Of a stretch of DNA of 53,269 bases, positions 1 to 39,480 are shown in pieces. The DNA lies in the NCBI GenBank assembly GCA_964574525.1, contig CAZNOE010000002.1, positions 1 to 53,269 on the forward strand, in the 5' to 3' direction. Origin of the DNA: an uncultured Bifidobacteriaceae bacterium. Lineage in GTDB: Bacteria > Verrucomicrobiota > Verrucomicrobiia > Limisphaerales > JADLHS01. Numbering within the stretch: position 1 is the stretch's first letter; every line of letters begins with the position of its first letter. The position numbers and the translations under genes were made by a program. The notes beneath the pieces were generated by a model that ran no database searches, was not told the DNA's origin, and saw only the letters and a list, made by a program, of their open reading frames with translations.

Positions 1-366
1 CAGCACCCAATAGCTCATGTCAGGTTTGGTCGTCGTTCGGAGGGCGTAGGCTTGCGCGCCCAACTCACCAGCAGGTTTGCCGCCTTGGGCTGAAAGTGCG
101 GAAGCGACCGTCTTGTCTGTAGCGACTGCGAGGACGATCTTCTTGCCGGCACCGGCTTTGGCCAGCGCGGCGAGGTCGTGGATTTCGACCGTGTGCTTTC
201 GCTTTTCCAATGCGGCTTTGATGTCGCTGGCCGCAAAGGCGATCTGCGGCGTGGCTGGATCAAAGTAAAGCCGCACGGTCTCCGCCGACGAAAGGGCGGA
301 GAAACCGAGGAGCGCGAAGAGCATCCAGGCGGCGGTGGCGATGCGGGCGAAGGGCAAGGTTTTCAT
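1..366 (-). CDS. 5' part (122 codons; gene runs off the window start) of a secreted member of the expanded glycosidase-like family (paralog 1)
   Basis: ATG at 366-364. Hand translation MKTLPFARIATAAWMLFALLGFSALSSAETVR... ends ...PDMSYWVL at base 1. Ungapped ~89% nt identity to 2256-2621 (N-terminus of the next paralog). Absent from the ORF track because no stop lies inside the window. Confidence 0.8.
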   Translation of the reverse strand, partial: MKTLPFARIATAAWMLFALLGFSALSSAETVRLYFDPATPQIAFAASDIKAALEKRKHTVEIHDLAALAKAGAGKKIVLAVATDKTVASALSAQGGKPAGELGAQAYALRTTTKPDMSYWVL

Positions 367-422
367 TGGCAGTCTCATTTGCGGAAGCCTTCTTCGGTGC
401 CACCGCGCTCACCTCAGTCGCG
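367..422 (-). other. Decayed 3' tail of the 423..2621 gene (in-frame remnant ...GERGGTEEGFRK* behind two stop codons)
   Basis: Reading on in the frame of 423..2621 past its TAA (425-423) gives R D TGA(416-414) G E R G G T E E G F R K TGA(377-375). The tail matches the C-termini of the neighbours (RSGSEKGFRQ*, RSGTEAGFKK*). Confidence 0.55.
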
Positions 423-2621: not shown

Positions 2622-2629
2622 TTGCAGTC

Positions 2630-4843
2630 TCATTGGCGGAAGCCTTTCTCGGAGCCGGAGCGTTTGCCGTCGTCTTGGAGGCTGCCCGGCTTCCACTGGC
2701 GGGCGATCTCGATGTCGGCAGCGACCTTTTCCGTCAACTCAGTCACATTCACATAGCCGACACGGTTGTAGAGAGCCGGCACATAATGGGCGTCGCGAAT
2801 GGCCGCATATCGCTTCCAGTGAGCATGGGCGTCACCGAGATGGCGCAAAGCCGCCTCGTGTTCGAACTTGTCGCCGTTCACGTCAAACAGCGCCAGCGCA
2901 CAGGCGCCGCGAATCTTGGACGCATAGTAGCGGCCCAGCCAGGCTAGGGCTTCGCAGTCGGTGACGTTTTTCCGGAGTTCGGAGTCTCCCTTGGCCGCTT
3001 CGCGAAGCGGGTCGAGCGCGGCGAAAGTTTCCGCTGCCGCGCCGTCGAGGGCTTCGGCGATTTCGAGCGGTGTGGTTTCCGTCATCTGCTGGCGGGCGGT
3101 GAGGCGAGCGCGCCAGTCGCGAATGCACAGCACCTCCGAGCCCGGCATGGTGATGCCTTCCATGAAATGGCGCACGGTGTAAAAGCCCTTGCTCCTCCGA
3201 TGGCTCAGGCAGGCCTCGGGATACCATTTGAGGTCAATGTCCCCCCAGAAAAAACGCGTGGCCAGCGGCATGACCTGCGACGCACCTTGCAGAGCGCGGA
3301 AGAGATGCGGAGATGAAGCCTTGGGATGGCGGGCGGCGAGGACTTTCTCGAAATGGGAATCCGGCAGCGAGGGATCGTAGGCCAGCCGGCCCCAGAGCAT
3401 GAACGAATACCATTGCTTCTCCATCACCAGCGGGCGCTTGCCGGAATCAGGATTGCGCTCCAGGAAATCGCGGCCCCAGGTATATCCATCCGGCCCCATG
3501 TAAAATCCTGCGATTTTTTCAGCAGGGGGAATGTTGAGGATGTATTCGCGGGCGTAGGCGGGATCGCCGAAGCGGAAAGTGTAGATGTCGTCATTGCGCA
3601 CGGTGAGCCAGGTTTTCAATCCGGGCGCGATATTTTCCAGCAGCGGCTGAATGAATGGCGGTTTCGTGATCGAATACATGTGCGCCACCGAGTATTTGAA
3701 ACTGAAATCAAAAGTTCCCGGGTAGTCTTTGAAGGCGTCGAGGATGTCGCTTTGCGCCGTCCAGTGGAAGCGATGGATCATGTTGAACTTGCGCTTGGGA
3801 TCATCCTTCAACGCATCGCGCACGCCCTCGCCGTAGGTGTCCCACAGCCAGGCTTCCTTGACCTTGGAATCCATGTTATGCGGCATACCCTCGCCGGCGG
3901 TAATGCCCATGCCGGCGAGCAACGGGTAGGTCTTCACCGTCTCGCGCACAGTGGCGCGGAAATACTTTTTCGTGATCTCGTTGCCTAGATCGTCTGTGAT
4001 GCCGTGCTTGCCCTCGGCACCGAAGGTGAAGACGTTCCATGTGAAAATATAGATCTGAATGCCGCGGTCGGCGGCCTGCTGCATGACCCAGCGCCAGAAC
4101 TCAATCTTCTCGTCAATCGTCATGCGCTTCACCACCTCGTGGTTGGCGAGCATTTCCGGCCGAACAAAGCCGACGCCAGAGAAACTGAAGTTATCATCCA
4201 GCTTGGCACGGGTGCGCCAAACGTCGTTGAGTGCGACATCGGGAAACTCAGGAACTTTCACCAGTGATGGGAATGGGTGAAGACTCCAAAGCGAGAGCAC
4301 ATTGTAGCGATGGCGCGCCATGGAATCGAGGTAGTTGATCCAGAAATCCTTTTCCCACACCTCGGGGATGTTTGCTTGGGCGGAATCGGAGGTGTCCGTG
4401 TAGCTTGGCGTGCGCAGGTCGAGCGGGATGTTGAACTTGATGCCGCGTTTCGCGATGTGGGGTTTCTGGTCGGCATCCTTCAGCGCGTCGAGCGTGCCCG
4501 TGCGAATCGCCTCCGCAATGTCCAGCCCGCCATACATCGCGCCGGCCGCATCGGCCCCGCGCACCGTGATGGCGCGACGCCCGCCCTCGTTCTGCACGCG
4601 AATGCCATAGCTCTGCGCAGCGGCGTTGCCGCCCTGTTCAACGGTAATGGAAATTCGCGTCGCCTTTGCGTCATCGCCCAAAGTCATGCCTTTGGCTGCG
4701 GCTTCACGGCGGATTTCCTCGGCTGCAAACTTTCCCGGGCCGGCAGAAGCCGCGTCGAGAGAGAGCGTGAGGGTTTGGGCCGCGAAGGCTGACGCGGACA
4801 GGCCGCACAGCAGCGCGCAAAGTAAGGTGGTGGTCTTTTTCAT
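2630..4843 (-). CDS. Secreted glycosidase-like family protein, paralog 3
   Basis: 737-aa ORF with signal peptide MKKTTTLLCALLCGLSASAFA. Motifs GADAAGAMYGGLDIAEAI, KRGIKFNIPLD, RHRYNVLSLWSLHPFPSLVKV, FTWNVF, GITAGEGMP, KYSVAHMYS, RNDDIYTFRFGDP, FYMGPDGYTWGR, LWGRLAYDP, YYASKIRGA. Confidence 0.9.
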   Translation of the reverse strand: MKKTTTLLCALLCGLSASAFAAQTLTLSLDAASAGPGKFAAEEIRREAAAKGMTLGDDAKATRISITVEQGGNAAAQSYGIRVQNEGGRRAITVRGADAAGAMYGGLDIAEAIRTGTLDALKDADQKPHIAKRGIKFNIPLDLRTPSYTDTSDSAQANIPEVWEKDFWINYLDSMARHRYNVLSLWSLHPFPSLVKVPEFPDVALNDVWRTRAKLDDNFSFSGVGFVRPEMLANHEVVKRMTIDEKIEFWRWVMQQAADRGIQIYIFTWNVFTFGAEGKHGITDDLGNEITKKYFRATVRETVKTYPLLAGMGITAGEGMPHNMDSKVKEAWLWDTYGEGVRDALKDDPKRKFNMIHRFHWTAQSDILDAFKDYPGTFDFSFKYSVAHMYSITKPPFIQPLLENIAPGLKTWLTVRNDDIYTFRFGDPAYAREYILNIPPAEKIAGFYMGPDGYTWGRDFLERNPDSGKRPLVMEKQWYSFMLWGRLAYDPSLPDSHFEKVLAARHPKASSPHLFRALQGASQVMPLATRFFWGDIDLKWYPEACLSHRRSKGFYTVRHFMEGITMPGSEVLCIRDWRARLTARQQMTETTPLEIAEALDGAAAETFAALDPLREAAKGDSELRKNVTDCEALAWLGRYYASKIRGACALALFDVNGDKFEHEAALRHLGDAHAHWKRYAAIRDAHYVPALYNRVGYVNVTELTEKVAADIEIARQWKPGSLQDDGKRSGSEKGFRQ

Positions 4844-4872
4844 AGTGCTGAATAATATACGGGTGTCTCAAC

Positions 4873-7065
4873 TCACTTCTTGAACCCAGCCTCCGTGCCG
4901 GAGCGCTTGATCTGGACTTCATCAATGGAGCCGGGCTTCCAGTCGCGTGCCATCTGCACGTCGGCGGCGACGTCTTCGGTTTGCTTGGGAAGGTCCACCA
5001 AGCCGGCGCGGTTGAAGAGGACGGGCTGAACATATTGGCGAGTGTAGGCGGCGACGTAATTTTTCCAGTGGTCCAGGGCCGCTTCGAGATGCTGCACGGC
5101 GGAAGTCTGTTGTTTGGTGTCGCCTGATTTGTCGAAGAGCGCGAGGTCGCAGGCACCGCGAATCTTCGACGCGTAATAACGCCCGAGATGCGACATGGCT
5201 TCGATGTCGCCGAGTGTGGCGGTGTATTCCTTGGCGCTGGCAGCAGGCGTGATGGTGGCGCCCCGAAGCCCGGGCAACGCTTGAAGCGCCCTAGTGGCGT
5301 TGGCATCCAGAGTCGCGGCGATCTCCAGCGGCGTCACGCCTTGCGGCATCTGCTTTGCCAGCAGGCCCGTGCGCCACTGGATGATGTTTAGCACGCCGGC
5401 CCCGGGCATCGTGCCGCCTTCGACGAAATTGCGCACTGTGTGGAAGCCGTCTCTCCTCCGACAGGCTTCGGGAAACCACTTGACGTCAATATCGCCCCAA
5501 AAGAAACGCGTAATGTAGGGAAACGTCTTTGAAGCATCCGCCCACGCGGCGGTGAGTCGGGCAGTATCAGAGCCAGGGAAACGTGCGGCGGTGAGACGCT
5601 CGAAAGTCGCCGCGGGCAGGTCGGGTTCATAGGCGAGGCGACCCCACAGGGCAAAGGACAGCCATTGTTTTTGCATGACGGTCTGGCGCGGGCCATCGGG
5701 GTTCTTGGTGATGAAATCCCGCCCCCAGTGATAACCGTCGGGGCCCATATAGAAGCCGGCGATCTTGTCCTCGCCCGGGATGGCCTTGATGAAGGCGCGG
5801 GCGTAGTCCACGTCGGCCCAACGGAAGCTGTGAATGTCGTCATTGCGGATCGTAAGCCAACTGCGGAGTTTGGGACTGAGCAAGGGCAGCACCGGCTTGA
5901 TCATGCTGGGGTTGGGCACGGAATACATGTGGGCGATCGCGTATTTGTAACTGAGGTCGAGCGGACACGGAAGTTCAGCAAACTCGGTTTGAATTTCGCT
6001 CAAGCCGGCCATGTGGAAGCGATGAATGAGCCGGAACTTTCGGTCGGGAGTGTCCTTCAAGCCATCCCGAATACCCTCGCCGTAGGTTTGCCAGAGCCAT
6101 TGTTCCTTGGAGACTTCCTTGAATTCGTTTTCCGGCATGACTTCGCCGGCGGTGATGCCCATGCCAGCCAGCAGCGGATAGGTCTTGATGGTCTCCCGCA
6201 CCGCAGCGCGGTAATACTCGATCGTGCGAGGGGCCGTCTTGTCACTCGTGATTCCATCTTTGCCTTCCAGCGGACCAATAAACGCGTTCCAAGTGAACCA
6301 ATAGACGTCCACGCCGCGGTCCTTCGCCATCTGCATGACCTCGCGCAGGAACTGGATTTTCTCATCTATCGTCATCTTCTTCACGACGATGATCTCCTCC
6401 TTGTTCGCGCTGGCAGTGTGCACATCCGCCAAGGCAACACTCGGGAACTCCGGTACCTTCACGATGCTTGGGAAAGGATTCATGCTCCACCACGAGATGA
6501 GGTTGTAGCGATGGCGGGCCATGTCATCAAACTGCTCGCGCCAAAAATCCTTGCTCCACATTTCGGCGACGTTAAGCCGCGCGGAATCCGGCCACTCGCG
6601 CTGGGTGTAGGTGGGCGTGCGCACATCGAGCGGGATGTTGAACTTGATGCCGCGCTGCTTGATGTAAGGCGTGTTGTCAGAGTTCTTCAGCGTGTCGAAC
6701 GTGCCCGTGCGAATTGCCTCCGCGATGTCGAGCCCGCCATACATTGCGCCAGCGGCATCGGCTCCGCGCACCGCGATGACGCGACGCCCGCCCTCGTTCT
6801 GCACGCGAATGCTGTAGCTCTGAGCAACGGCATCGCCGTCCTTTCCGACGGTGATTGCGATGCGGGTCGCGTCAGCGGGCGCTTTCGCGTCGGCGCCGGT
6901 GACACTCATGCCCCGCGCCGCAGCCTCGCGGCGGATTTCCTCGCCGGCAAATTTCCCCGGCCCGGCGGCAGCCGGGTCGAGCGTGAGCAATAGAGTCTGC
7001 GCGGCGAAGGCCGAGCCAGACAAGGCGCAGAACAGCGCGCAGATTAAGAGACTATTCATTTTCAT
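4873..7065 (-). CDS. Secreted glycosidase-like family protein, paralog 4
   Basis: 730-aa ORF with signal peptide MKMNSLLICALFCALSGSAFA. Same motif series as 2630..4843 and clearly its closest relative in the window. Confidence 0.9.
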   Translation of the reverse strand: MKMNSLLICALFCALSGSAFAAQTLLLTLDPAAAGPGKFAGEEIRREAAARGMSVTGADAKAPADATRIAITVGKDGDAVAQSYSIRVQNEGGRRVIAVRGADAAGAMYGGLDIAEAIRTGTFDTLKNSDNTPYIKQRGIKFNIPLDVRTPTYTQREWPDSARLNVAEMWSKDFWREQFDDMARHRYNLISWWSMNPFPSIVKVPEFPSVALADVHTASANKEEIIVVKKMTIDEKIQFLREVMQMAKDRGVDVYWFTWNAFIGPLEGKDGITSDKTAPRTIEYYRAAVRETIKTYPLLAGMGITAGEVMPENEFKEVSKEQWLWQTYGEGIRDGLKDTPDRKFRLIHRFHMAGLSEIQTEFAELPCPLDLSYKYAIAHMYSVPNPSMIKPVLPLLSPKLRSWLTIRNDDIHSFRWADVDYARAFIKAIPGEDKIAGFYMGPDGYHWGRDFITKNPDGPRQTVMQKQWLSFALWGRLAYEPDLPAATFERLTAARFPGSDTARLTAAWADASKTFPYITRFFWGDIDVKWFPEACRRRDGFHTVRNFVEGGTMPGAGVLNIIQWRTGLLAKQMPQGVTPLEIAATLDANATRALQALPGLRGATITPAASAKEYTATLGDIEAMSHLGRYYASKIRGACDLALFDKSGDTKQQTSAVQHLEAALDHWKNYVAAYTRQYVQPVLFNRAGLVDLPKQTEDVAADVQMARDWKPGSIDEVQIKRSGTEAGFKK

Positions 7066-7104: not shown

Positions 7105-8685
7105 TCAATCCAGCGGTTGTTTTTCGAAATCCGATTCTTCCACCCAACCAGCCTTCAATTTCTCGCCCCTCATGTAGCGCTCGTGGAAGTTCCGCTGGCC
7201 GGCGTTGGCGTAAGGGTATTGCTCGAACACCTCGCCCCGTCCGTACATCCTTGGGTCCTCTTGCGCCTTGAGTTCGCTGACCATTTGCTGCTCCAGTTCG
7301 CGCTTGCGATCGGCGAATGACGGGTCAGTGGCCAGGTTGCTCACACAGTCCGGATCCCGCTTCAGGTCGTAAAGTTCTTCCGAGAGACGCTTGCCGAAAC
7401 AGAGCGCCCAATGCGGATCGGCCATGTTCTTGCGGTGGGCGTCTAGGATGAAGGTCTTCGTGGCACCGGCGTCGCAGTTGAGATAGCCGGTTTCGGGGTT
7501 GCCCGCAGGCCAGCGGTTCGTCTCGTAGTTCCGGACGTAAAGCAGGTCGCCCTTGATGATGCCGCGAATCGGGTAGCCCCAATCGTGTGGGCGGCCGACA
7601 TCATGCCGTTCTTTGCCAATCAGGACGTGGTCGCGCGCCGGGTTCAAGGTACCGGTCTTTTCGGAGAACAGTATGTCCGTGAGACTGCGCCCGGCGGCGG
7701 CGGGCATGCCGGTTTGCGCCCATTTCAATCCTGCCAGCTCGATGAAAGTGGGGGCGAGGTCAATGAAACTCACGATGTCGCGCACCTTGCGGCCCGGCTG
7801 CTTCAGCCCGTTCTTCCACATCATCGCCAGCGGGATGTGATTGGACGGTTCGTAGGCCTGGCCTTTGACCCGCGGGAACGGCATGCCGTGATCGGACGTA
7901 ACCACCACCAGGGTGTTGTCGAGCAGGCCGCGCTTCTCCAACTCGGCGAGCATCCGGCCAAGATGCCGGTCGAAATGCTCCACCTCGAAGGCGTAGTCCA
8001 GCATGTCGTTCCGGACCGTTTCGTTATCGGGCCAGCAGGCGGGTACGCGGTCCACATCGGTGGTCTTCTTGCCGCCTTTCGTCACGCCGGAGCCGTACTC
8101 ATAGCCACGATGCGGCTCGAGCGCACCATACCAGAAGCACCACGGCTTGCCCTTGGGAGCGGCGTCCAGGAAGTCGGTGAAGTTCGCGGCGTAGTCGCTC
8201 GGCCCAATCCCGGAGGCGGACGGTTTCGCGGTGCGGGCATTGAACGCCTTGCCAGTCATCTGGCGCGGCTTGCCGACGGTGTTCGTGGCGATGCCGGGCG
8301 CCCAGCCTTTCGTGGTATGACCGGCGAACCAACCCTGCTCGTCGAGCGCCTCGAAGAAGGTTTTGAACTCGGGTGGAAAGTACGGGACGTGGTTCGCCGC
8401 CGCCTTGAGCTGCCACGAGTTGCGACCGGTAAGAATACAGGCCCGGGACGGCGCACACTTGGCATTCGGCGTGTAGGCGTGCGAGAAGAGAATGCCCTGG
8501 TCCGCGACCCGGTCGAACGCCGGCGTTTTGACCCACTTGCAACCGTAAGCGCCAGCGTGGCCATAGCCCCAATCGTCGGCGATGGCAAAGAGGATGTTGA
8601 GACGTGGGTGCTCGCCCGCCCCGACCGTGAGAGATGACCAGGCGAGCGCCCCCAGCAGCAACGACAAAAGTGATTTCGATTTCAT
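7105..8685 (-). CDS. Formylglycine-dependent sulfatase (arylsulfatase-type, S1 family), secreted
   Basis: ORF 7105..8880 trimmed to ATG 8685 ([23 protein letters not shown] signal). Contains [12 protein letters not shown] (C-x-P-x-R formylglycine motif), ADDWGYG near the N-terminus and [11 protein letters not shown]. The start overlaps the upstream stop as ATGA (8682-8685). Confidence 0.9.
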
Positions 8686-10010
8686 CCGAGGGACCAAGGT
8701 TTGCGGTATTCGCGGCCCAGCAGCTTGCTGGCTTCGGTGTCGCCGATAATGACTTCGCGCTGCGCGTCCCATCGGATCTTGCGCCCGGTCCACATGGCGA
8801 TCAAACCGAGGTGGCCGGGCACTGCCGAATGATGCGCCGTCTCGACCGGCGTGATGGTGGGCTTTCGGGACTTCACGCAATCGAGGAAGTTGCGCTGGTG
8901 CCCCGGGGACTCGTAGAGCTTCACCTTGCGCTGCTCGTCCGGCAGTGAAGTCATTTCAGTCCAGGCCTCGTTCGGGGCGCTGAAGGCACCGCGCGTCACA
9001 TGCACCCAGCCGTCCGTGCCGATCCATTTCGTGCCGCCTTTGATGTCGGGATATCCACCCGCAATGACCATTTCGATGTTGTTCGGGTATTTCAGGTTGA
9101 GGCGGTACTTGGTGCAAGTATTCCACACGGCGTCCTTCGGCGGGAATTCGCCAACGCCCTCGATCTCGCTTGGGCCGTTGTCATCGAAACCCAAACCCCA
9201 GTGCGCGATATCCACGTGATGCCCCACCCAGTCGAGCAACTGCCCGCCACCGGTGTTGTAGTTCCAGCGCCAGTTTTTGTGTACCTGGCATTCCCGGTAA
9301 GGCATCACCTGTGACGGCCCGATCCAGGTCTCGTAATCCAGCTCGACCGGTGGCGCGGTGATTTGGTTCTTGTCCTTCGTCTTGGCGAAATCGTTGTGCC
9401 CGGCAGGCAGGCCGACTTCCACCCGCGTGATCTTGCCGATCAATCCATTGCGGACGATTTCCGCCGCCTTGTGAAAGTTTCGCTGCGATCGCTGCCACGA
9501 GCCGGTCTGCCAGATCCGTTGGTTTTGCTGCACGGCCTTCACCATCGCCTGCTGCTCCGCAATGGTCCGGGCGAGCGGCTTTTCGCCAAAGATATCCTTC
9601 TTGTTCCGGGCCGCCTCGACCGCCGCCAGGCAATGCCAGTGATCCGGCGTCGCCATCATCACCGCATCAATGTCCGGGCGGGCACACAAATCGCGATAAT
9701 CGGCATAAGCTTTGCAATCCTGGTTCTTGTAATGGCCGTTGACCTTCTGCACGGCGTTGGACAGATGCGTCCTGTCCACGTCGCAGACCGCCACGACTTG
9801 ACAATCCGTCTCACGCAGAAACGCGCCCAGGTTCGATCCGCCCTGCCAACCGCAGCCGATCATGCCCAAGGTGATGCGATTGGACGGCGCCGGTTTGCCA
9901 GCCTGCCCAAACACGCTGGACGGGAGAATGGTGGGCGCGGCCACCGCCAAGGCAGCGGTGGCGAGAAACTGGCGACGATTGAAGCGAACTGAGTCTGGTT
10001 TTGTTTTCAT
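8682..10010 (-). CDS. Gfo/Idh/MocA-family NAD(P)-dependent oxidoreductase with twin-arginine (Tat) signal
   Basis: N-terminus [26 protein letters not shown] (RRxFL Tat motif). Rossmann motif [11 protein letters not shown], plus ATPDHWH and GEKPLA typical of the family. Confidence 0.85.
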
Positions 10011-30765: not shown

Positions 30766-30775
30766 AGGTGATGGT

Positions 30776-31774
30776 TTACTTCGCATGCGCCGGCTGGAAC
30801 GGCCGCGCCGACGGTTTATCCGCACTCGGAAAATCAGCGGGGATCTTTTGCGTGACCTTGCCCGTGGCCGCCCATTCCGTGCCGCGCAGAAAAGTGGTGA
30901 TGAATCCCACGCCCTCGAACGCCTCCGTGTCATGGCCGAGCGTGGTATGAAAGACACGGCCCTTCTGGTACTCCACCGTCATCAACATCGGCTCGTGGCG
31001 GCCGGCGGCCTTGAGTGCGGGTGAATCGCAGGCCGTCGCGAGGATGGTCAGGTTCTCCGCCGGGCCGCGCAGGTGCGAATAACATTCGTCCTGGGTGTGC
31101 ATCCAAAAATCCGGCAGGCCTTTTGTGATGGGATGCTCATGGTTGCGGATGGTCACGACGAATTCATTCTGTGGCCCGTGTCTGCCCGCCTTGCCCGGAC
31201 TCGTGTCGCGCACGATTTTGCCCTCGTTGTTGTAATACACGAACGGCCCGTCCTTCTCCGTGCGGTCGCCCCAGCCGCCCAAAGCGATCATTTTGTTGAA
31301 CTCGGTCCAGTTGCCCCAACTGTTGTCCGCAGCGTGGACGGAAACAAATCCGCCGCCGCCCGTCACGTATTTTTCAAAGGCCCGCTGCGTTGCCTCCGGC
31401 CAGTCGGCAGCCCGCCAACCGAAGTTGCTGATGACGACCGCGTATTTGGCGAAGTCTGGTTTGAAATTCGGATCGGGCTGCGGCTCTTTCACCATTTCAG
31501 ACTCACCCGCGCCGGCCAGCGGCAGAAACGCCTTCTCGCGCTCGGCGCTCCAGATGAATTTCGTGCGCGCCACGTCCACCGTGAACAACCCCGTGGCTTC
31601 GAGGTATTGCTTCATCATCACCGTGGACTTCGGCCAGACCTGGTGGTTGTTCTGACCGTCAACGATCAGGGCTTTCAATTTATCCGCCGCGTGCAGGGCC
31701 GGGGTCAAGCCCAGCAGCAGCACGATGGCTGTGGTGCGGAAAAGAGTTTTTCCGGAGTTAACTGGCTTGTTCAT
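30776..31774 (-). CDS. ThuA-domain protein (trehalose-utilisation-like), secreted
   Basis: Signal peptide ...IVLLLGLTPALHA, then KALIVDGQNNHQVWPKST, typical of PVC-type ThuA-domain proteins. The start ATG overlaps the upstream stop (ATGA, 31771-31774). Confidence 0.75.
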   Translation of the reverse strand: MNKPVNSGKTLFRTTAIVLLLGLTPALHAADKLKALIVDGQNNHQVWPKSTVMMKQYLEATGLFTVDVARTKFIWSAEREKAFLPLAGAGESEMVKEPQPDPNFKPDFAKYAVVISNFGWRAADWPEATQRAFEKYVTGGGGFVSVHAADNSWGNWTEFNKMIALGGWGDRTEKDGPFVYYNNEGKIVRDTSPGKAGRHGPQNEFVVTIRNHEHPITKGLPDFWMHTQDECYSHLRGPAENLTILATACDSPALKAAGRHEPMLMTVEYQKGRVFHTTLGHDTEAFEGVGFITTFLRGTEWAATGKVTQKIPADFPSADKPSARPFQPAHAK

Positions 31775-32550
31775 GGTTTTGATTGTTTGGGTCGGTCAAA
31801 CTTTCCCGGCGCAGCCGGCGCACGGCGCGGCGGCAATTCCATCGGCAGCGCGTAACGCTCCGGATGCCCGGTGATGAAGCGGATGTTCTTCAAACGGATG
31901 GCGCTCTGTGCAGCCTTGGGGTTGTTGCCGAGGGAGTGAATCTTGAAGGCGATGCGGCCCTTCCGATATTTTTCATCCACCAGATGGCAGGTCGGCACAC
32001 CGTTGACCCAGACCTTGATCGTCGCACCGATGCACTCGATGCGGAAACGCGCCCACTCGCCGAGCTTGAACGCGGCGCGGCCACGCTCGTTGTCCGCCAG
32101 ATCGTGCAGCCACTTCCAGGAATCGCCGAAGTCATCGAAGACGCCGCCAGTCCAGGCGCGCGGAGTGTTGTCAATTTTGACCTGATACGCGTTGAGCCGC
32201 ACCTTCGCGTCGGCGGAGGCATCCACGCAACGCAGCAAAATGCCGCTGTTGAAGCCGGGATCGTCCTTCACATCGAGTTCCAGGATGAAATCGTCGTATT
32301 CGCGCTCCGAGGCGACGAACGTGTGCTCAATCGTGTTGCTCCGTTGCCGCAGCACCATCGCGCCGTCCTCGACCACGACGGGCGCGGGATTGGTCAGGGC
32401 GACAATCTTCCAGCCGGTCAAGTCCCGCCCGTTGAAGAGCGACACCCAGGGCTCAGCGGCAGCCTTCGGCTCAGCCGCGTCCAGACACAATGCCGAAGCC
32501 AACGATGCCAAGATCAAGGGTTGAGCGAATCCCAGCGACCGACGTTTCAC
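31771..32550 (-). CDS. DUF1080 (Pfam name: 3-keto-disaccharide hydrolase) domain protein, secreted
   Basis: Motifs WVSLFNGRDLTGWK ... GRIAFKIH...IRLKNIRF. The ORF-track start at 32652 is TTG and overlaps the upstream gene. I chose GTG 32550 (VKRRSLGFAQPLILASLASALCLDA signal); GTG 32565/32580 are alternatives. Confidence 0.75.
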   Translation of the reverse strand: MKRRSLGFAQPLILASLASALCLDAAEPKAAAEPWVSLFNGRDLTGWKIVALTNPAPVVVEDGAMVLRQRSNTIEHTFVASEREYDDFILELDVKDDPGFNSGILLRCVDASADAKVRLNAYQVKIDNTPRAWTGGVFDDFGDSWKWLHDLADNERGRAAFKLGEWARFRIECIGATIKVWVNGVPTCHLVDEKYRKGRIAFKIHSLGNNPKAAQSAIRLKNIRFITGHPERYALPMELPPRRAPAAPGKFDRPKQSKP

Positions 32551-32597
32551 TTGAATTGTTCGCACAAGTTGATCTTCCACATTCAAACCATGAGCCG

Positions 32598-34850
32598 TCA
32601 GCCCTTCTCGGCGATGGCGATGTCGAGTTGCGGCCCTGAATCGTCGAACCAATCAAACGTTTTCTGGCCGGAGATAAACAGCTTGTTTGTGTAGCTGGCA
32701 TCCAATTCCTTGGCGTAATTGCGCCAAGCGGTCAGGGCGTTCTTCAGGTGGGCGACAGCGTCTTTTTGGTGCTGGCTCACGCCTGTCTTGCGGAATAAAC
32801 CGAGTGCCACCGCTCCGCGAATCTTGGCGGCGTAATACTGCCCGAGCCGAGCTTGCGTCCGGATGTCGCCGAGAGTCTCGCGGAGTTCCACATTTCCGCC
32901 ATTACTCACACCGGAAATCGTTGTCAGCGCTTTTTCGGCCAGCTCGTCCAGTTGGGTTGCCACCTGCAAGGGAGTGGTCCCCGAGGTCTTCTTCTGGGAA
33001 ACAAAATCAGGAATGCCGATGATTCCCGAGCCTTCCATGCCGCCCCATCGTTCATCCAGGAAAATATTTACGGTATGGAAACCCTGAATGCTCTTGTCCA
33101 ACAGGTTGCCTCTGCATCCTTCGACCCACCACATAAAGTCCCACGGGACGTACCGAGTTCTGTTCACAAGCGGTATGATTTGGGAGGCAGACTGCCAGGA
33201 ATCATATAGAGCGGTGGCGTCCGAAAGCTGGAAGCGATGTTTGATGAGTCCTTTGAGCAATTCGGGAGAGGTCTCGGGATCGTATCCGAGCCTTCCCCAC
33301 AAGAGGAAGGAATACCAGTGCTTGTCGTTTTCCAACTGCCGGGGCGAAGTGGGATTCTTGCTCGCGCTTTCCCTGCCCCAGCAAAATCTGTCTGAACCCC
33401 AGACGTAGCCCGCAGTCCTGCCGTCGCCGGGAAAGTTCAAGACTGCCTGCTTCACATACTCCGGGTCGCCCCAGCGCACGAGGAAGATGTCGTCATTCCG
33501 GAGATTCCACCAAGTCTTCATTCCGGCTGGCGTCACATCCAGCACATCCTTTTTCGCAAAAGGCGGATTCGGCGCAGAGTAAAGGCGCGCTTTCGAGTAT
33601 TTGTATTCCAAGTCAAAGCCATCGGGTAGTTTATTGAAACGATTGCCGATATACTTGAAATCCGTCAGCCAGTAGCGGTGGACGAACCCGATCTTGCGGT
33701 CGGGATTCATCTTCTTGTAGTCGAGGATGCCTTCGCCATAAACATCCCAGCACCATTGCTCCTTGAAGTCGTGATCTTTGTTCTTGTCGCCAAAATTTTC
33801 TCCGGGGCACATGCCCAAGCCGGCCAACTTCGGGTAAGTGAGAAAAAGCTGCGTGACGGCTTTGCGGATATAATCCTTGGTGATCGCGTTGGTCGGGCTG
33901 TCCGTCAAACCATACTTCGTGTCTTCGCTGCCATACACATGGATGTTCCAGACATACCACCAAACCTCGATTCCCCGGTCTTGCGCGTAGGCCATGACCT
34001 TTTGCCAGAAAATTATTTTTTCGGCATGGGTCATTTTCTTGATCAGTTCCCCACGCTTGTCATAGACATCATCCAAGGCCACATCCTCGTAGCCGGGCAC
34101 TTTGACCAGGGTAGGAAAAGGATGCCGGTTCCAAAGACTGAGAACGTTGTAACGCTGCTTGGTTATGGTATCGAGATACTCCTTCCAGAAGTTCAAATCC
34201 CACACGTGTTTGAAGTTTTCCCGACCGGATGTTCCATTGTCATCGAAACTAGGCTGTCGTTTATCAAGCGGTATGTTGAATTTAATTCCCCGCTTCGCGA
34301 TGTAAGGCTTGTGGTCGCCATTAGCGACGTCTGCGATTGAGCCGGCAGACGCAATCTCGCCGATGTCTATGCCGCCATACATCGCGCCGACGCGATCACC
34401 GCCGATGGCCCAAAAACCCTTCTTGCCGCCGTTATAGGTCTTCCTGAGAGCGTAGGTTTCCTCGCCCATAGTGCCGGGTTTTTGGCCGCCGCGGGTCTCC
34501 AACAGTCGCAGCACAGGTTGAGAGGTGTTCTTGGCGATAACCACATAACACGTATCCGGCGCAGCGGGCATTTCAGCGAATGTTTTCAGAGTAGCCGGAT
34601 TGTGGCCGATCGAGCTGAGGGTCTTCTGAAGCTCCCGGGCGGAGAATTCAATGGAGGGTTCCGTGTTGTCATAATAGACCACAACGGCTTCGCGCGAAAT
34701 CCTGGTCGGAACGGCTGCCTTTTTCTCCCCCGGAGTCGGTGTCGTGGTTGCACTGATATTGGCAGCGGCAGCCGTTGTGTTTGCTCCTGCCATTCCTCCT
34801 GCTATCAAGAGTAGCAGAAATGCCTGCAGTAGTCTGTTTGTCGTTTTCAT
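32598..34850 (-). CDS. Secreted glycosidase-like family protein, paralog 7
   Basis: 750-aa ORF with signal peptide MKTTNRLLQAFLLLLIAGGMAGA. Motifs GGDRVGAMYGGIDIGE, KRGIKFNIPLD, KQRYNVLSLWNRHPFPTLVKV, YVWNIHVYG, CPGENFG, RNDDIFLVRWGDP, LWGRLGYDP, YYAAKIRGA. Confidence 0.88.
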   Translation of the reverse strand: MKTTNRLLQAFLLLLIAGGMAGANTTAAAANISATTTPTPGEKKAAVPTRISREAVVVYYDNTEPSIEFSARELQKTLSSIGHNPATLKTFAEMPAAPDTCYVVIAKNTSQPVLRLLETRGGQKPGTMGEETYALRKTYNGGKKGFWAIGGDRVGAMYGGIDIGEIASAGSIADVANGDHKPYIAKRGIKFNIPLDKRQPSFDDNGTSGRENFKHVWDLNFWKEYLDTITKQRYNVLSLWNRHPFPTLVKVPGYEDVALDDVYDKRGELIKKMTHAEKIIFWQKVMAYAQDRGIEVWWYVWNIHVYGSEDTKYGLTDSPTNAITKDYIRKAVTQLFLTYPKLAGLGMCPGENFGDKNKDHDFKEQWCWDVYGEGILDYKKMNPDRKIGFVHRYWLTDFKYIGNRFNKLPDGFDLEYKYSKARLYSAPNPPFAKKDVLDVTPAGMKTWWNLRNDDIFLVRWGDPEYVKQAVLNFPGDGRTAGYVWGSDRFCWGRESASKNPTSPRQLENDKHWYSFLLWGRLGYDPETSPELLKGLIKHRFQLSDATALYDSWQSASQIIPLVNRTRYVPWDFMWWVEGCRGNLLDKSIQGFHTVNIFLDERWGGMEGSGIIGIPDFVSQKKTSGTTPLQVATQLDELAEKALTTISGVSNGGNVELRETLGDIRTQARLGQYYAAKIRGAVALGLFRKTGVSQHQKDAVAHLKNALTAWRNYAKELDASYTNKLFISGQKTFDWFDDSGPQLDIAIAEKG

Positions 34851-35182: not shown

Positions 35183-35200
35183 CCAAAAGGGCTTTAGATT

Positions 35201-36475
35201 TTACGCTTTGCGTTCACTCTTTTGATACGTGGCGGCTTTCAACCACTCCGGATTGACCTTTACGCCCCAGCCCGGGCCGGCTTCGAAGCTCGCCCGGCCG
35301 TCCTTCACAAACGGGCTCGGGCCAAAAAGCTGGGTTGCCTGCTGGTTCACGCCGCCAGGTTCGATGCTCCATTCCATCATCGGGCCGGCGTTTGGCAGGG
35401 CGGCAAAGAGGTGCAGCGTGAACAGCGTGACCATTGAATGATTCGCCGAGTGTGGCACAACGGTTTTGCCCGCGAGTCCCGCCAGCAATCCCACCCGCCA
35501 GGTGCGCGTGATGCCACCGAGGTAAAGCACGTCCGGCTGCACGATGTCCACGGCGTTCATCCGAATCATGCGCCGCCATTGCGCGAGGTCGTTGTCCTGC
35601 TCGCCGCCCGCGACCTGGATTTTCAATGCACCGGCGACTTCCGCCGTCCATTCCAGCTCCCAATACGGACACGGCTCTTCGTAGTGGTTGTAGCCCTGAT
35701 CTTCCAGGATGCGGCCGATGGCGATGGCGCGCGGCGGGGTGAAGCCGCTGTTGGCGTCGGCCTTGAGTGCGACGGCGTCGCCGAGCGCCTTGCGCACCGT
35801 GGGAATGATTTTTTCACTGCGACCCGGCGCGGCGTCCAAGTCATGGCCATTTTCCTTGGCGACGCGGATTTTGAATCCGCGAAAACCCTCAGTGTCGCGC
35901 AGTTTCACCAGTCGTGCGGCTTCGTCCTCCGGCGAAATCGTCCGGCTCATGCTCGAACCATAGGCGGGCAGCGGACGCACCTTGCCGCCGAGCAATTCCG
36001 CGACGGGTTTCTGTTTGATCCGGCCATAAAGATCCCAGATGGCGGTGTCCACGCCGCCAATCGCGCGGCAGACGAACGACCAGGGGAACTTGTGGTTGGC
36101 GTCAATGCAGTGATCCACAATAGCGTCAATGTCCGCCGGGTCTTTGCCCAGCACCAGCGGCGCGATCTTGCGGTGGAGCGTCAGCACGCTGATCTCAGTT
36201 TCATAGGTGGCAATCTGGCCGTAGCCTTCCTGACCGTCAGCAGTCGTCACGCGCACGATGGCGAACATGCCTTGGTTGAACGTCTCGATCTTCTGGATGA
36301 TGCGGCCCGGTTCGATGACGCGAAACTCGGTGTAATCGTCAGGTCGCCCGTGGTAGGAGTAACTGCGCTTGACGGGCACGGCAACAGACTCCGCCGCCGA
36401 ACCGATTCCTGGCAATCCAATGGCCGCGCCCGAAGTGAGCACGGTCGCATTCTTCAAGAATTCCCGGCGTTGCAT
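35201..36475 (-). CDS. Enolase-superfamily enzyme (mandelate racemase/muconate lactonizing enzyme family, acid-sugar-dehydratase-like) with Tat signal
   Basis: The ORF-track start 36481 is TTG; the first ATG is 36475, giving MQRREFLKNATVLTSGAAIGLPGIGSA (near-consensus RREFLK Tat motif). Metal-ligand and catalytic motif order FKIRVA, KADANSGF, YEEP, AGGEQD, IVQPDV, VPHS. Confidence 0.85.
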   Translation of the reverse strand: MQRREFLKNATVLTSGAAIGLPGIGSAAESVAVPVKRSYSYHGRPDDYTEFRVIEPGRIIQKIETFNQGMFAIVRVTTADGQEGYGQIATYETEISVLTLHRKIAPLVLGKDPADIDAIVDHCIDANHKFPWSFVCRAIGGVDTAIWDLYGRIKQKPVAELLGGKVRPLPAYGSSMSRTISPEDEAARLVKLRDTEGFRGFKIRVAKENGHDLDAAPGRSEKIIPTVRKALGDAVALKADANSGFTPPRAIAIGRILEDQGYNHYEEPCPYWELEWTAEVAGALKIQVAGGEQDNDLAQWRRMIRMNAVDIVQPDVLYLGGITRTWRVGLLAGLAGKTVVPHSANHSMVTLFTLHLFAALPNAGPMMEWSIEPGGVNQQATQLFGPSPFVKDGRASFEAGPGWGVKVNPEWLKAATYQKSERKA

Positions 36476-36536
36476 ATTCAATCCTAGATTTGCTTAAGGT
36501 TGCATTCGATTCAGGTGCGGTAAGCCAATGACCGAC

Positions 36537-37151
36537 TCATTGGCCTAGCGGCCTCAACTTAATATTGCGAAACTTGACCATCCCTTGCCCCTGGAACTGT
36601 TGCAATCCGATCGGCCCGAACTTCTCACGATCATCGTGTGTATCCACAACCACGCGACCATCGAACCGCACCACCAAATGATTGCCCTGCGCGGTGATGT
36701 GGTAGCTGTTCCAGCGGCCAGCCGAGCGGATGTCGCCCTGCCGCAGAGCGATTTCGTTGATGCTGCCGGTCGGCCATTTCAAGTGCGCGTCGTAGATGTT
36801 CACTTCATACGCATTGGTTGCGGAGATTGGACCACTGATCGGACAACGCAGGAACACGCCGCTGTTTGCCACCGCGTCCACCCAGAAATCCACTTTCAAC
36901 TCGAAGTTGTCATAGCTCTTCGCCGTGCAGAGAAAGCCCGGGCCAGTGCCAGCGCGATACACGATGGCCCCGTCCACCACGTCCCAACGCGCCTGGTCGC
37001 GCGGCGTCCAGCCGGCCAGGCTTTCGCCGTCAAACAACGGCACCCAGCCGGCCTGTTTTTCGACGGGTGTGAGTTGGTTCAACTTCAGATCGGTCGTGGC
37101 GCAACCCGCGAGCAACCCCAGCGCACAGAGCGAGAGATATTTGAGGTTCAC
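36537..37151 (-). CDS. DUF1080 domain lipoprotein
   Basis: GTG start at 37151. Lipobox (M)NLKYLSLCALGLLAGC. Motifs WVPLFDGESLAGWTP ... GPIGLQQFQGQGMVKFRNIKLRPL. Confidence 0.75.
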   Translation of the reverse strand: MNLKYLSLCALGLLAGCATTDLKLNQLTPVEKQAGWVPLFDGESLAGWTPRDQARWDVVDGAIVYRAGTGPGFLCTAKSYDNFELKVDFWVDAVANSGVFLRCPISGPISATNAYEVNIYDAHLKWPTGSINEIALRQGDIRSAGRWNSYHITAQGNHLVVRFDGRVVVDTHDDREKFGPIGLQQFQGQGMVKFRNIKLRPLGQ

Positions 37152-37179
37152 GATTGAAGAGTGGATGTCTGGTCGTGGT

Positions 37180-39480
37180 TCATGGTGATTTCGCCGGGCG
37201 ATTCGTGCTGGTGATTTCCGCTGGAATGTCCGTGTCCACCTGGGCTTGGATGCCCGCGATGTCCACGGCCGTCAGTCCCATGCGCGTGAGCACTTGCTTG
37301 ACGTATTGCGAGGACCATTGCACGGCGTATTGCTTCCAAAAATTCGAGGCCGCAATGAGATGTTTCCGTGCCTGGGCATGATGGGTGGCTTCACCGCCGG
37401 TTTCATATCGGTAGAGCGCCACCGCACCGCGAATTTTTGCCGCGTAATAATTTCCGAGCGCCGCCATCGCCTTGATGTCGCCCAACGTCTGGCGCAGTTC
37501 CTTGTTTGTTCCCGCGTCGAGTCCGGCGATGCTGCCTAGTCCGCGCTCGGCGAACTGTTGCAGTTGATCCGCCACCTGTTCGGGAGTCATGGGCCCGTCA
37601 GGTTTCGCGCCGTCCACAAAATCCTTCACCGACATCAGCAACGGTCGGTCGCCGTCAGCGCCTGCTGGCATCGGACGCCAGCGGGGCTTGATGAAATTCT
37701 GCACGCTCTCAAATCCCGCGCTGCTCCAGCAGGCCTCGGGATACCATTGGAAATCGAGCGCGCCCCAGTAGAACCGCGTGACCAGCGGAATGATTTTGGA
37801 AACCGACGCCCAACCGGAAAAAAGTTTCTCCGCAGAAACCGTGGGGAAACGTTCGCCTATAATCGCCTCAAAGCGGCTGTTGGGAATCGTCGGATCGTAG
37901 GCGAGCCGCCCATAGAGCAGGAAGTAATACCACATCTTCTCGATGACCAGTTGCCGCGGCGCATCCGGCTCGGTGCTCAAGTATTCGCGCCCCCAGGTGT
38001 AGCCGTCCGGGCCGATATAGATGCCCGCGATTTTCGACAGGTCCGGCAGGTTGGCGAGATAAGCCCGCGCAAAATCGGGATCGCCCCAGCGCAGGTAATA
38101 CATGTCGTCGTTCCGCACGGTGAGGAGGATTTTGCTCCCGGCGGGGATGTTCTGGAACCAGTCCCTGCGGTGGATGAACAGCGGCTTGGTGGAAGAATGC
38201 ATGTGTGCCTGGGAATACTTGAAACTGAACAACAGGCTCGATTCTGCATTCGTGCGCCCGGGCAACGCCGAGAAAACATCAATGATCTGCTTGAGATCCG
38301 CCTCATGCGCGCGATGGATGAGGGTGATCTTGCGGTCCGGCACGTTGAAGGGGCTGGCGGGATTTTTCGCGTCAGCCATCGCATCGGAAACGCCCAGTCC
38401 GTAGGTGTCCCACGCCCATTGTTCTTTCTGTTCGTCGTTGCTGCCCCCCATGTTCTCACCGGTGGTCAGCCCCACGCCCGCCAGCAATGGATAGGTGTTG
38501 CACAGGGCGCGGACGGATTTCCGGAAATAATCCCTCGTGATCGCGTTGGTGGGCGAGTCCGTGATGCCGTAACCGCTGGACTCCGTGCCATACACAAAAA
38601 TGTTCCACGTCATGACGTAACATTCGATGCCGCGATCCTTGGCGTATTGCATGACCCAGCGCCAGAAAGCGATCTTTTCCTCGATGGTCATCTTTTTTAG
38701 GGTCGTCAGTTCCCAGGAGGGATCATACATTTTCATGCCCCTGAGGGTGGCATCCCACATCGGCCCGGCTCTCCGCTTCACATCCGCGAGCGCCACGTTG
38801 GGATACTCCGGCACGCGCACCATCGAGGGGAACGGATGCAGGCTCCAAAGCGAAAGCAGATTGTAGCGATGCCGCGCCATCTCATCCAACATCCCGGCCC
38901 AGAAGTTGGTTTCCCACATATTGGCAATGTTGGCCTGCGCGGAGTCTGAATCATCCGAGTAACTCGGTGTGCGCGCGTCCAGCGGGATGTTGAACTTAAT
39001 GCCGCGTTTCTCCAGATACGGATTGGTCTGGCGGTTCGTCACGCTGCCCAGGCCATTGGCCAGTTGCAGGGATTCGGCGAGTTCCAACCCGCCATACATT
39101 GCGCCTGCCGCGTCATTGCCAATGACCCACCAGTTCGTCGCCGCGCCGCTGGCGACGAACTGGATGGCGTAGCCCTCGCGCAAAATTCCCTTCGTCGAGG
39201 GTTGACCGGGCAGCTTGGCGTCCTCGGTGGTGAGGATGATACGGACGGTTTGCTTCGCCTGCGCCGGATCGCCGGGCGGCAACACCGTCACCGTATAACC
39301 GTTTGCCGTCAGCGCCGTCTTCACATCGCTTGCGCCAAAGGCAATCGGACCGACCTTCGCATCATACATCAGGGCAGCGGGCGTTTGCGCGCGGGCCAGA
39401 GTGACAGCCACCACGGCAGCAAACAGGACTGCTGCCAATCCTGCGCTGAATGATTTAATGCGTTTTGACTTTCTGATCAT
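37180..39480 (-). CDS. Secreted glycosidase-like family protein, paralog 8 (closest to 11111..14179 but lacking its C-terminal extension)
   Basis: 766-aa ORF with signal ...AAVLFAAVVAVTLARA. Motifs GNDAAGAMYGGLELAESL, KRGIKFNIPLDARTPSYSDDSDSAQANIANMWETNFW, RNDDMYYLRWGDPDFARAY, etc. Confidence 0.9.
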   Translation of the reverse strand: MIRKSKRIKSFSAGLAAVLFAAVVAVTLARAQTPAALMYDAKVGPIAFGASDVKTALTANGYTVTVLPPGDPAQAKQTVRIILTTEDAKLPGQPSTKGILREGYAIQFVASGAATNWWVIGNDAAGAMYGGLELAESLQLANGLGSVTNRQTNPYLEKRGIKFNIPLDARTPSYSDDSDSAQANIANMWETNFWAGMLDEMARHRYNLLSLWSLHPFPSMVRVPEYPNVALADVKRRAGPMWDATLRGMKMYDPSWELTTLKKMTIEEKIAFWRWVMQYAKDRGIECYVMTWNIFVYGTESSGYGITDSPTNAITRDYFRKSVRALCNTYPLLAGVGLTTGENMGGSNDEQKEQWAWDTYGLGVSDAMADAKNPASPFNVPDRKITLIHRAHEADLKQIIDVFSALPGRTNAESSLLFSFKYSQAHMHSSTKPLFIHRRDWFQNIPAGSKILLTVRNDDMYYLRWGDPDFARAYLANLPDLSKIAGIYIGPDGYTWGREYLSTEPDAPRQLVIEKMWYYFLLYGRLAYDPTIPNSRFEAIIGERFPTVSAEKLFSGWASVSKIIPLVTRFYWGALDFQWYPEACWSSAGFESVQNFIKPRWRPMPAGADGDRPLLMSVKDFVDGAKPDGPMTPEQVADQLQQFAERGLGSIAGLDAGTNKELRQTLGDIKAMAALGNYYAAKIRGAVALYRYETGGEATHHAQARKHLIAASNFWKQYAVQWSSQYVKQVLTRMGLTAVDIAGIQAQVDTDIPAEITSTNRPAKSP

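Follow-up and report, generated by a model that had tools for sequence, protein, structure and literature searches.

A dense array of GH138-like proteins lacking the equivalent of Glu361 in a Verrucomicrobiota contig

The closest described relatives of the proteins considered here belong to glycoside hydrolase (GH) family 138, whose representatives BT0997 of Bacteroides thetaiotaomicron and BPa0997 of Phocaeicola paurosaccharolyticus (PDB entries 6HZE, 6HZF and 6HZG) are exo-acting alpha-D-galacturonidases on chain A of rhamnogalacturonan II (RG-II). The catalytic pair of GH138 was reportedly proposed by Labourel et al. in 2019 (J Biol Chem) to consist of Glu294 and Glu361, and the entries 6HZE and 6HZG carry the mutation E361S. 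The roles of GH138 and of GH140, the RG-II apiosidase family, in RG-II breakdown have been listed (PMC13501991), and a CAZy-based survey describes GH138 as occurring at low frequency, mostly in Bacteroidetes, and in tight association with GH137, 139, 142 and 143 (PMC7922503). In the present work, contig CAZNOE010000002.1 of a Verrucomicrobiota assembly (53,269 nt; hereafter the window, i.e., the whole stretch of DNA that was analyzed) was found to carry eight paralogous genes whose products share sequence, core fold and a part of the active site with GH138. In all seven complete copies, Glu361 is replaced by alanine or serine. Judging from the sequences and a structural model, these proteins are probably Sec-exported glycoside hydrolases of GH138 ancestry, exo-acting on anionic glycans and with a relocated second acid. 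The existence of a distant GH138-like clade is unsurprising; of more interest are the loss of Glu361, the predicted basic pocket and a conserved verrucomicrobial locus.

The eight reading frames are all present on the minus strand in the table of open reading frames (ORFs) of the window, as the initial annotation had reported, and are named here by their start coordinates. Seven are complete, one is cut by the window edge, and together they sum to 16,761 nt, or 31.5% of the window, in agreement with the approximately 16.8 kb and 31% given before. The complete paralogs, W423 (423–2621, 732 aa), W2630 (2630–4843, 737 aa), W4873 (4873–7065, 730 aa), W11111 (11111–14179, 1022 aa), W28600 (28600–30765, 721 aa), W32598 (32598–34850, 750 aa) and W37180 (37180–39480, 766 aa), range in size from 721 to 1022 aa, align end to end and have pairwise identities of 26–72%. 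W28600 is the most divergent copy and has insertions after beta3 and beta5, W32598 has a Thr/Ala-rich linker after the signal peptide, W11111 carries a C-terminal extension of approximately 280 aa (11111–11950), and W37180 served as the modelled reference. W1 (1–366) comprises the N-terminal 122 codons of the eighth paralog; its frame lacks any stop codon and shares 89% identity with the start of W423, so that W1 is a copy truncated at the window edge, and its reading as a pseudogene is rejected. The large divergence between copies noted earlier holds in general, with the exception of three closer pairs, namely, W1/W423 (89%), W11111/W37180 (72%) and W2630/W4873 (60%). Similarly, all eight motifs of the previously described series were recovered by regular expressions in every complete copy, the sole exception being W28600, in which the first motif deviates (AGDERGAMYGVLEVAE). 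Three ORFs reach earlier GTG/TTG starts (2696, 14197 and 30957), and the ATG starts give signal-peptide-like N-termini, with 1–5 Lys/Arg in residues 1–10, followed by a hydrophobic 10-mer (mean Kyte–Doolittle value 2.2–3.1) and a small-x-small site. The Sec signal peptides attributed to the paralogs are consistent with this heuristic, which considers charge, hydropathy and the small-x-small site only.

In Pfam, the only match among the eight proteins was a sub-threshold one to GH67N, in W32598 (E = 0.002, 18.6 bits vs. the Pfam cut-off of 24.3 bits), with no match to the M and C domains of GH67. The NCBIfam model NF049878 (alpha-D-galacturonidase) matched all seven complete paralogs partially (86–106 bits, E = 1e-24 to 1e-30), and none of the seven reached its equivalog cut-off of 1300 bits. 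When the paralog profile was compared with all PDB sequences, only BPa0997 (6HZE, 6HZF and 6HZG) was matched (E = 5e-43), and the alignment extended over approximately 670 residues (query 11–679, chain 10–671). In BLASTP searches, the paralogs had 19–23% identity with full-length BPa0997 (P0269; E = 1e-15 to 1e-22, up to 747 columns), and the comparison of the paralogs with GH138 in hhalign gave a probability of 99.9% (E = 3e-37, 632 columns). Two hidden Markov models (HMMs) were built, one from 108 database representatives of the clade to which the paralogs belong and the other from 120 Bacteroidales GH138 proteins. The similarity of the paralogs to each other is far beyond chance, each scoring 599–966 bits on the clade HMM (966 for W2630, 935 for W11111, 864 for W4873, 840 for W423 and 599 for W28600), which contained unrelated database members only, against 66–94 bits on the GH138 HMM, where W28600 was top among the seven with 94 bits. 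The GH138 proteins scored 194–296 bits on the clade HMM and 1316–2122 bits on their own, in a narrow set in which every member was at least 65% identical to BPa0997 and beyond which the CAZy boundary of GH138 may extend. Thus, the two groups are approximately tenfold apart in HMM score in each direction.

The structure comparison of the paralogs covered W37180, for which an AlphaFold2 model was obtained (pLDDT 86.1, pTM 0.88). Its top matches in Foldseek were 6HZG, 6HZE and 6HZF (TM 0.68–0.78, E approximately 1e-29, probability 1.0); superposition of the model on 6HZG, the 694-residue 'N-ter' construct giving the best TM, yielded TM values of 0.71–0.78. The GH138 entries were followed, after a large gap, by GH67 (TM approximately 0.45–0.5) and then by GH84 and GH20. 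The three-domain core is common to the model and GH138 and consists in W37180 of the N-domain (approximately residues 33–146), the barrel (approximately 150–530) and the helical domain (approximately 530–750). The glycosidase-like layout proposed initially, in which a small alpha/beta domain is followed by alternating strand/helix motifs and by a helical tail, was borne out by the model and by Foldseek, the middle part being a (beta/alpha)8 barrel. Unlike GH138, the paralogs are devoid of the C-terminal domain of approximately 200 aa (approximately residues 700–893 of the 893-aa BPa0997), the alignments ending at approximately residue 671, and the extension of W11111 is unrelated to this domain. 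On the evidence of sequence and model, the paralogs belong to the GH138 lineage as a divergent sister group or sub-clade and do not represent an unrelated new fold or family. They were not filed as GH138 alpha-galacturonidases because Glu361, the C-terminal domain and a score above the NCBIfam threshold are missing, while sequence similarity, the core fold and Glu294 are present.

The initial annotation had regarded the proteins as a candidate for a wholly new family of carbohydrate-active enzymes without an assignable relative. This would agree with the silence of Pfam, apart from the one sub-threshold GH67N match, and with the database names of the clade members, which are only 'hypothetical protein' and once 'carbohydrate-binding family 6 protein'; it is also true that no named-family model, either in Pfam or as an NCBIfam model of its own, is available for the clade, which is why annotation pipelines call its members hypothetical. 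The family can nevertheless be placed, because GH138 largely provides a full-length match to a characterized CAZy family by profile (E = 5e-43), by hhalign (99.9%) and by structure (TM 0.71–0.78), and intermediate sequences bridge both groups. A family without any relative is therefore very improbable and, as stated, refuted by the similarity to GH138; a family number of its own beside GH138 is a narrower claim.

The resemblance to GH20-, GH67- and GH115-type enzymes noted at the outset is real at the level of the fold (GH20 and GH67 in Foldseek) and, for the N-domain, also at the level of sequence. The alpha-glucuronidases of GH67 (1K9D and 1GQI) were the second-best structural match with an identical domain order, and the merged profile matched the N-domain of 1GQI with E = 8e-4, in addition to the weak GH67N match of W32598. 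In GH67, the acid is the Glu of beta4, further acids follow beta6 and beta7, and the uronate carboxylate is bound by Arg and Lys; we take this layout to resemble R390 and K421 of the clade. Against a true GH67 relationship, the TM values were only approximately 0.46–0.5 with a root-mean-square deviation above 9 Å, and neither the barrel nor the C-domain of GH67 was matched by sequence, the merged profile matching the N-domain alone up to E = 10. GH84 and GH20 share the arrangement of an N-domain followed by a barrel (Foldseek TM approximately 0.4), and the motif G-x-D-x-x-G-x-x-Y-G is common to the N-domains of the paralogs, GH84, GH20 and GH115; N-domain matches of the merged profile included 6PV5 (E = 3.6e-5), GH20 entries (E = 2e-4 to 5e-3) and the GH115 entry 7PUG (E = 8e-3). 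An adjacent Asp-Glu or Asp-Asp pair after beta4 is needed for the substrate-assisted catalysis of GH20 and GH84. This pair is absent from the clade, in which the beta4 loop reads G-[ILM]-[TC]-x-G-[ED]-[NGVR]-[MF] with a single acid, and no sequence similarity was found at the level of the barrel. Membership in GH67, GH20 or GH84 was thus rejected by the Pfam scores, the TM values and the beta4 loop.

Residue conservation was assessed in 115 clade sequences with a mutual identity of at most 50%, using the numbering of W37180. In the model, the barrel strands correspond to residues 160–164 (beta1), 208–211 (beta2), 286–291 (beta3), 333–339 (beta4), 386–390 (beta5), 416–423 (beta6), 451–457 (beta7) and 484–490 (beta8). 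The near-invariant polar residues at the strand ends are R159/K162/N164, N207/W212, W292/N293, G341-E342, R390, K421/Y422/H426, R456/N457/D458/D459 and G490; all conserved active-site residues except D576 and E582 sit at the C-terminal ends of the eight modelled strands, a pattern that would be expected of a working TIM-barrel enzyme. Residues R159, W194, D199, N207, W212, R283, N293, Y318, Y330, G341-E342, R390, K421 and Y422 are common to the clade and GH138, with G341-E342 equivalent to G293-E294, R390 to R332, and K421-Y422 to K357-Y358; in GH138 numbering, the shared invariant residues include Glu294, Arg332, Lys357-Tyr358, Asn185, Asn242, Trp172 and Asp177. The acid singled out initially, namely, the Glu of GIT-x-GE that is Asp in 423–2621, aligns with Glu294 of GH138. 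At position 342, Glu was found in 92% of the 115 sequences, Asp in nearly all others and Thr in one. Among the paralogs, six have Glu (motif G-x-x-x-G-E) and W423 has Asp (TGDGMG), which is a trait of its whole subclade, including the nearest relatives P0167, P0173, P0186 and P0199.

The other glutamate of the GH138 pair has been lost. Its equivalent is Ala425 in W37180, and the window copies have Ala at this position in six cases and Ser in W28600, with no acidic residue anywhere in the beta6-alpha6 loop; in W32598, Arg replaces the His that follows this Ala. The clade members P0252, P0253 and P0268, which have the highest GH138 HMM scores (94–146 bits), keep 'K-[FY]-N-G-E-H', and the GH138 segment 'K-Y-N-G-E361' was therefore set opposite 'K-Y-S-x-A425-H426' of the clade. 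These three sequences look like evolutionary intermediates, and two of the three carry Asn instead of Asp at position 576. Unlike GH138, the clade has its own invariant residues K162, N164, R383, R456, H/R426, D/E458, D576 and E582. Of the 115 sequences, 113 have Asp or Glu at position 458, where beta7 ends, and Asp576 (97%) and Glu582 (98%) lie within the 'D-F-x-W-Y-P-E' loop. The basic residues of the clade that are missing from GH138 are K162 (Cys in GH138), R383, R456 and His/Arg426.

These differences bear on the simplest alternative, according to which the paralogs are ordinary GH138 alpha-galacturonidases cleaving alpha-1,2-linked galacturonic acid from chain A of RG-II that have simply increased in number in a bacterium of soil or fresh water. 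In favour of this, PDB and NCBIfam yielded no significant relative other than GH138, and the window also holds two genes of the GH140 type. Against this stand the scores of 86–106 bits relative to the cut-off of 1300, the identity of 19–23%, the substitution of Glu361 in all seven copies and the missing C-terminal domain; moreover, seven divergent subtypes would be too many for one linkage. The clade also fits poorly inside GH138 because that family is of low occurrence and mainly confined to Bacteroidetes (PMC7922503), whereas at least 954 clade clusters were found, mostly in other phyla. This alternative is therefore considered improbable.

Slightly less probable still is the possibility that the paralogs are catalytically dead GH138-like proteins serving in glycan binding or as a scaffold. 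The Ala or Ser at the Glu361 position would agree with this, as would the Ser at position 342 of one Haladaptatus homologue, although the latter was placed by rough addition to the alignment. However, the polar residues at the eight strand ends are near-invariant in the 115 sequences, as are the acids 342, 458, 576 and 582, and such conservation fits catalytic selection better than binding alone; in addition, a separate protein of binding type is already encoded in the locus.

A switch of chemistry, either to a uronate polysaccharide lyase or to a hydrolase whose nucleophile is non-classical or whose route is substrate-assisted, was judged about as improbable as an ordinary GH138 function. It would account for the replacement of the acid beside a near-invariant His/Arg and for the gain of K162 (in place of Cys), R456 and R383 relative to GH138; in a lyase, His/Arg426, Arg456, Lys162 or Tyr could act as base or neutralizer, and in the Bacteroidales locus L079 two family genes have a Pfam Alginate_lyase gene upstream of them. 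On the other hand, the beta4 Glu is retained, the loop reading G-E-[NGVR] does not provide the Asp-Glu/Asp-Asp pair of GH20 and GH84 for a substrate-assisted route, and we know of no (beta/alpha)8 polysaccharide lyase with this architecture, which counts against the lyase variant.

The relocation of the second acid in a hydrolase of GH138 ancestry remains the preferred explanation and would proceed as follows. From a common ancestor with GH138, the clade would have kept the body plan (an alpha/beta N-domain similar to GH20b and GH67N, the barrel and the helical bundle) together with the beta4 carboxylate Glu342 (= Glu294), the Arg of beta5 and the Lys-Tyr of beta6. After the loss of the second glutamate, catalysis would pair Glu342 with one candidate relocated acid, which may be Asp/Glu458, Asp576 or Glu582. 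With Lys162, Arg383, Arg456 and His/Arg426 at the barrel mouth, the predicted pocket is approximately four charge units more positive than that of GH138 and, for this reason, probably binds a more anionic sugar, such as a uronate, a sulfated sugar or another acid sugar. The copies are spread over at least five ancient subclades, and it is therefore probable that each copy cleaves off its own residue or type of linkage, the substrate being a single complex acidic glycan or a small number of such glycans. Putative partners are the adjacent sulfatase, a PA14-like binding protein and the nearby sugar-acid genes, namely, an enolase-superfamily dehydratase, a glycerate kinase and an MFS transporter. 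A more far-reaching version, in which the clade would deserve a CAZy family or subfamily of its own beside GH138, the second acid has moved to beta7 or to the D-F-x-W-Y-P-E loop, the basic pocket accepts sulfated or doubly anionic non-pectic sugars, and the conserved verrucomicrobial array is the equivalent of a polysaccharide utilization locus (PUL) for an acidic glycan outside Bacteroidota, is offered tentatively and has somewhat less than an even chance of being correct.

Several points weigh against this explanation. The analysis directly shows the homology, the fold, the conservation of residues and of the locus and the division into subclades, whereas the hydrolase activity, the second catalytic residue and the anionic substrate are predictions, and the loss of the catalytic Glu could mean a different chemistry or lost activity. 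The catalytic roles of Glu294 and Glu361 themselves are those reportedly proposed for GH138, together with the PDB entry name 'E361S'. The candidates Asp458, Asp576 and Glu582 were chosen by their conservation. HMMER, MAFFT and hhalign align the beta6-beta7 region differently, so that the correspondence of the beta7 acid is uncertain and only the Glu361 position is fixed, via the intermediates. The locus context is kept within Verrucomicrobiota only, with no cross-phylum neighbours among 80 genome loci, and sugar-acid genes are common in such genomes anyway. Literature searches, which are noisy because 'GH13_8' matches 'gh138', turned up no paper on a GH138-like clade in Planctomycetota, Verrucomicrobiota or Acidobacteriota.

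In a library clustered at 50% identity, 3,381 representative clusters were matched at E < 1e-3, of which 954 remained at E < 1e-30. The matches in genomes belonged mostly to Acidobacteriota, Planctomycetota and Verrucomicrobiota, with few in Bacteroidota and Firmicutes; the clade occurs mainly in Verrucomicrobiota, Planctomycetota, Acidobacteriota and haloarchaea, in contrast to the gut Bacteroidales of GH138. Neighbour-joining analysis and nearest-neighbour identities revealed at least five subclades among the window copies, namely, W37180 with W11111, W32598, W423 with W1, W2630 with W4873, and W28600, the last being nearest to the intermediates and to GH138. All five subclades have outside relatives at 50–60% identity, which for three of them are closer than any window copy. 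The best orthologue of W37180 was found in a locus labelled Planctomycetota (L001) that is not syntenic with the window. The old age of the expansion suggested initially is thus confirmed by the spread of the copies over subclades with relatives in other organisms, and the expansion consists of old subfamilies brought together and of at most three duplications of younger age, among which that of W1/W423 (89%) is recent. The density of eight copies in the window is unusual, since a second copy within 10 kb was found in only 4 of the 80 loci from other genomes. The clade is uncharacterized, very large and altered at a catalytic position, yet it is no orphan.

In soil and water, complex glycans are broken down to a large extent by Verrucomicrobiota, Planctomycetota and Acidobacteriota, and much of the enzyme repertoire of these phyla is unannotated. 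For this clade, the link to GH138 offers a structural template (6HZG), a probable catalytic residue (Glu342), candidates for the second acid (Asp458, Asp576 and Glu582) and a guess at an anionic sugar as the substrate, and the window provides seven full-length, naturally diverged versions of the predicted enzyme. Should the relocation of the catalytic residue and a new specificity prove true, CAZy would gain a family or subfamily and thousands of environmental genes would gain a function; if the proteins are ordinary alpha-uronidases, the gain in annotation would be useful and routine.

Unlike GH138 genes in RG-II utilization loci, the paralogs form a multi-copy array beside a sulfatase. From position 19731 down to 1, every gene of the window lies on the minus strand, in the order of two DUF1559 genes, a gene for a 993-aa protein, W11111, a gene for a Big_7 protein, a GFO/IDH/MocA oxidoreductase gene, the sulfatase gene, W4873, W2630, W423 and W1. 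A similar order recurs at 69–88% identity on three independent JGI metagenome contigs (L082, 6123–14199; L083 and L084, 4183–23006) and partly in a Verrucomicrobiota metagenome-assembled genome (L080); it comprises DUF1559, a PEP-CTERM protein found in L082–L084, the 993-aa protein, a W11111-type enzyme, the oxidoreductase and the sulfatase, followed by a W2630-type enzyme and by one more gene of the family. The orthologues of W2630 were 86% identical in L080 and 77% in L083/L084, with gene order kept, and those of W11111 were 88% identical in L082 and 69% in L083/L084. In the conserved metagenome locus, the W11111-type enzyme is fused to Big_7/Flg_new_2 domains. The sulfatase (7105–8880, minus strand; Pfam Sulfatase, E = 9e-38) keeps its position in L080, L083 and L084 at 81–84% identity, and its true start is probably downstream of the stop codon of the preceding oxidoreductase gene (8682–10010, minus strand), which has an 88% identical counterpart in L080 and is present in L083/L084. 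At the head of the locus, the prepilin-type DUF1559 protein (17436–18212, minus strand; Pfam N_methyl and SBP_bac_10) is 79% identical to proteins encoded at the equivalent position in L082–L084, and the second full DUF1559 gene is located at 18775–19731 on the minus strand. Between these two genes, a 64-codon ORF (18245–18439, minus strand) encodes a prepilin-type N-terminal segment only and is probably the remnant of a third DUF1559 copy. Upstream of the locus in L083/L084 lie genes for a sensor kinase (Y_Y_Y/HisKA_3) and a response regulator (GerE). In its organization, the conserved locus looks like a PUL-like unit outside Bacteroidota.

The secreted multidomain protein of 993 aa (14325–17306, minus strand) is encoded directly upstream of the W11111-type gene in L082–L084. 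Pfam, NCBIfam and PDB-sequence searches gave no match for it, and only 31 homologues were detected among 5.8 billion proteins. In its AlphaFold model (pLDDT 77), beta-sandwich domains of PA14-like lectin and Ig-like type follow one another in a chain, and the Foldseek matches included PA14-type lectin/adhesin domains (Epa, Flo1 and an RTX adhesin), SGBP-B and CBM74; as modelled, the protein is a probable glycan-binding partner of the array. A C-terminal module of approximately 280 aa is common to W11111 (11111–11950) and the 993-aa protein (14325–15173), with 29% identity (E = 1e-18); in this module, an alpha/beta part precedes a beta tail of approximately 60 aa, which ends in [FY][FY]RVKQ. 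The module had no database match, nor had the W11111 extension any match among PDB sequences; it may serve in sorting or anchoring.

The genes for acid-sugar catabolism in the window encode a glycerate kinase (Pfam E = 5.5e-145), an enolase-superfamily dehydratase, whose best partial NCBIfam matches were arabinonate, gluconate/galactonate and talarate/galactarate dehydratases, a four-carbon acid-sugar kinase of the DUF1537 type and a dehydrogenase of the Iso_dh (isocitrate/tartrate dehydrogenase) family; together with the MFS transporter gene, they occupy positions 19814–21094, 35201–36481, 46742–48196, 51533–52678 and 49615–50868. The block 46742–52678 is syntenic with the Verrucomicrobia loci L067 and L054, which, like L080, belong to Verrucomicrobiota. 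A further association was found on plasmid NZ_CP119793.1 of Haladaptatus sp. QDMS2 (L081, 24635–66566), where five superfamily members, two of the W28600 type (39–41% identity) and three, of 824–876 aa, of a more distant clade, lie within 30 kb and have no obvious signal peptide. Their neighbours are four enolase-superfamily (mandelate racemase/muconate-lactonizing) genes, MFS and ABC sugar transporter genes and an exo-alpha-sialidase-like gene, and two sister strains share this arrangement; no literature on these Haladaptatus strains was found. The gene associations in the window and in Haladaptatus are compatible with the release and catabolism of acid sugars, of which they are no proof.

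Genes of the W2630 and W28600 types are adjacent in L013 (Chitinophagaceae), L079 (Bacteroidales) and L067 (Verrucomicrobiia), which suggests that these two subclades act together. The neighbours of these pairs were Alginate_lyase in L079, a GHL6/GH42-like gene and a dehydrogenase gene similar to tartronate-semialdehyde reductase in L013, and GH2, GH140-like and sulfatase genes in L067.

Among the remaining genes of the window, three DUF1080 (3-keto-disaccharide hydrolase family) genes, a ThuA gene, a xylose-isomerase-like TIM-barrel gene and a second GFO oxidoreductase gene are interspersed with the paralogs; including the oxidoreductase gene of the array, this set lies at 27586–28578, 30776–31774, 31771–32652, 36537–37151, 41986–42777, 8682–10010 and 48584–49837. 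Such a gene set is associated with the oxidative (3-keto) cleavage of glycosides. An aldo/keto reductase, a GH27-like protein and a DUF5107-TPR protein are also encoded. The two adjacent GH140-like proteins (42836–44872 and 44740–46812, minus strand) have DUF5060 and Collagen_bind_2 domains, and one of them has a weak Apiosidase-domain match (E = 7.6e-4); neither had an NCBIfam match, and the protein encoded at 44740–46812 had no match among PDB sequences. Because the listed ORFs overlap by 133 nt, one of the two starts was probably miscalled. The pair may represent a second case of divergent expansion in a family associated with RG-II, and its homologues adjoin family genes in L067 and L054. 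Finally, a protein with DUF4874 and DUF4832 domains, for which NCBIfam and PDB-sequence searches gave no match, is encoded at 39483–40844 on the minus strand; its gene starts 3 nt after the end of W37180 and is probably co-transcribed with it.

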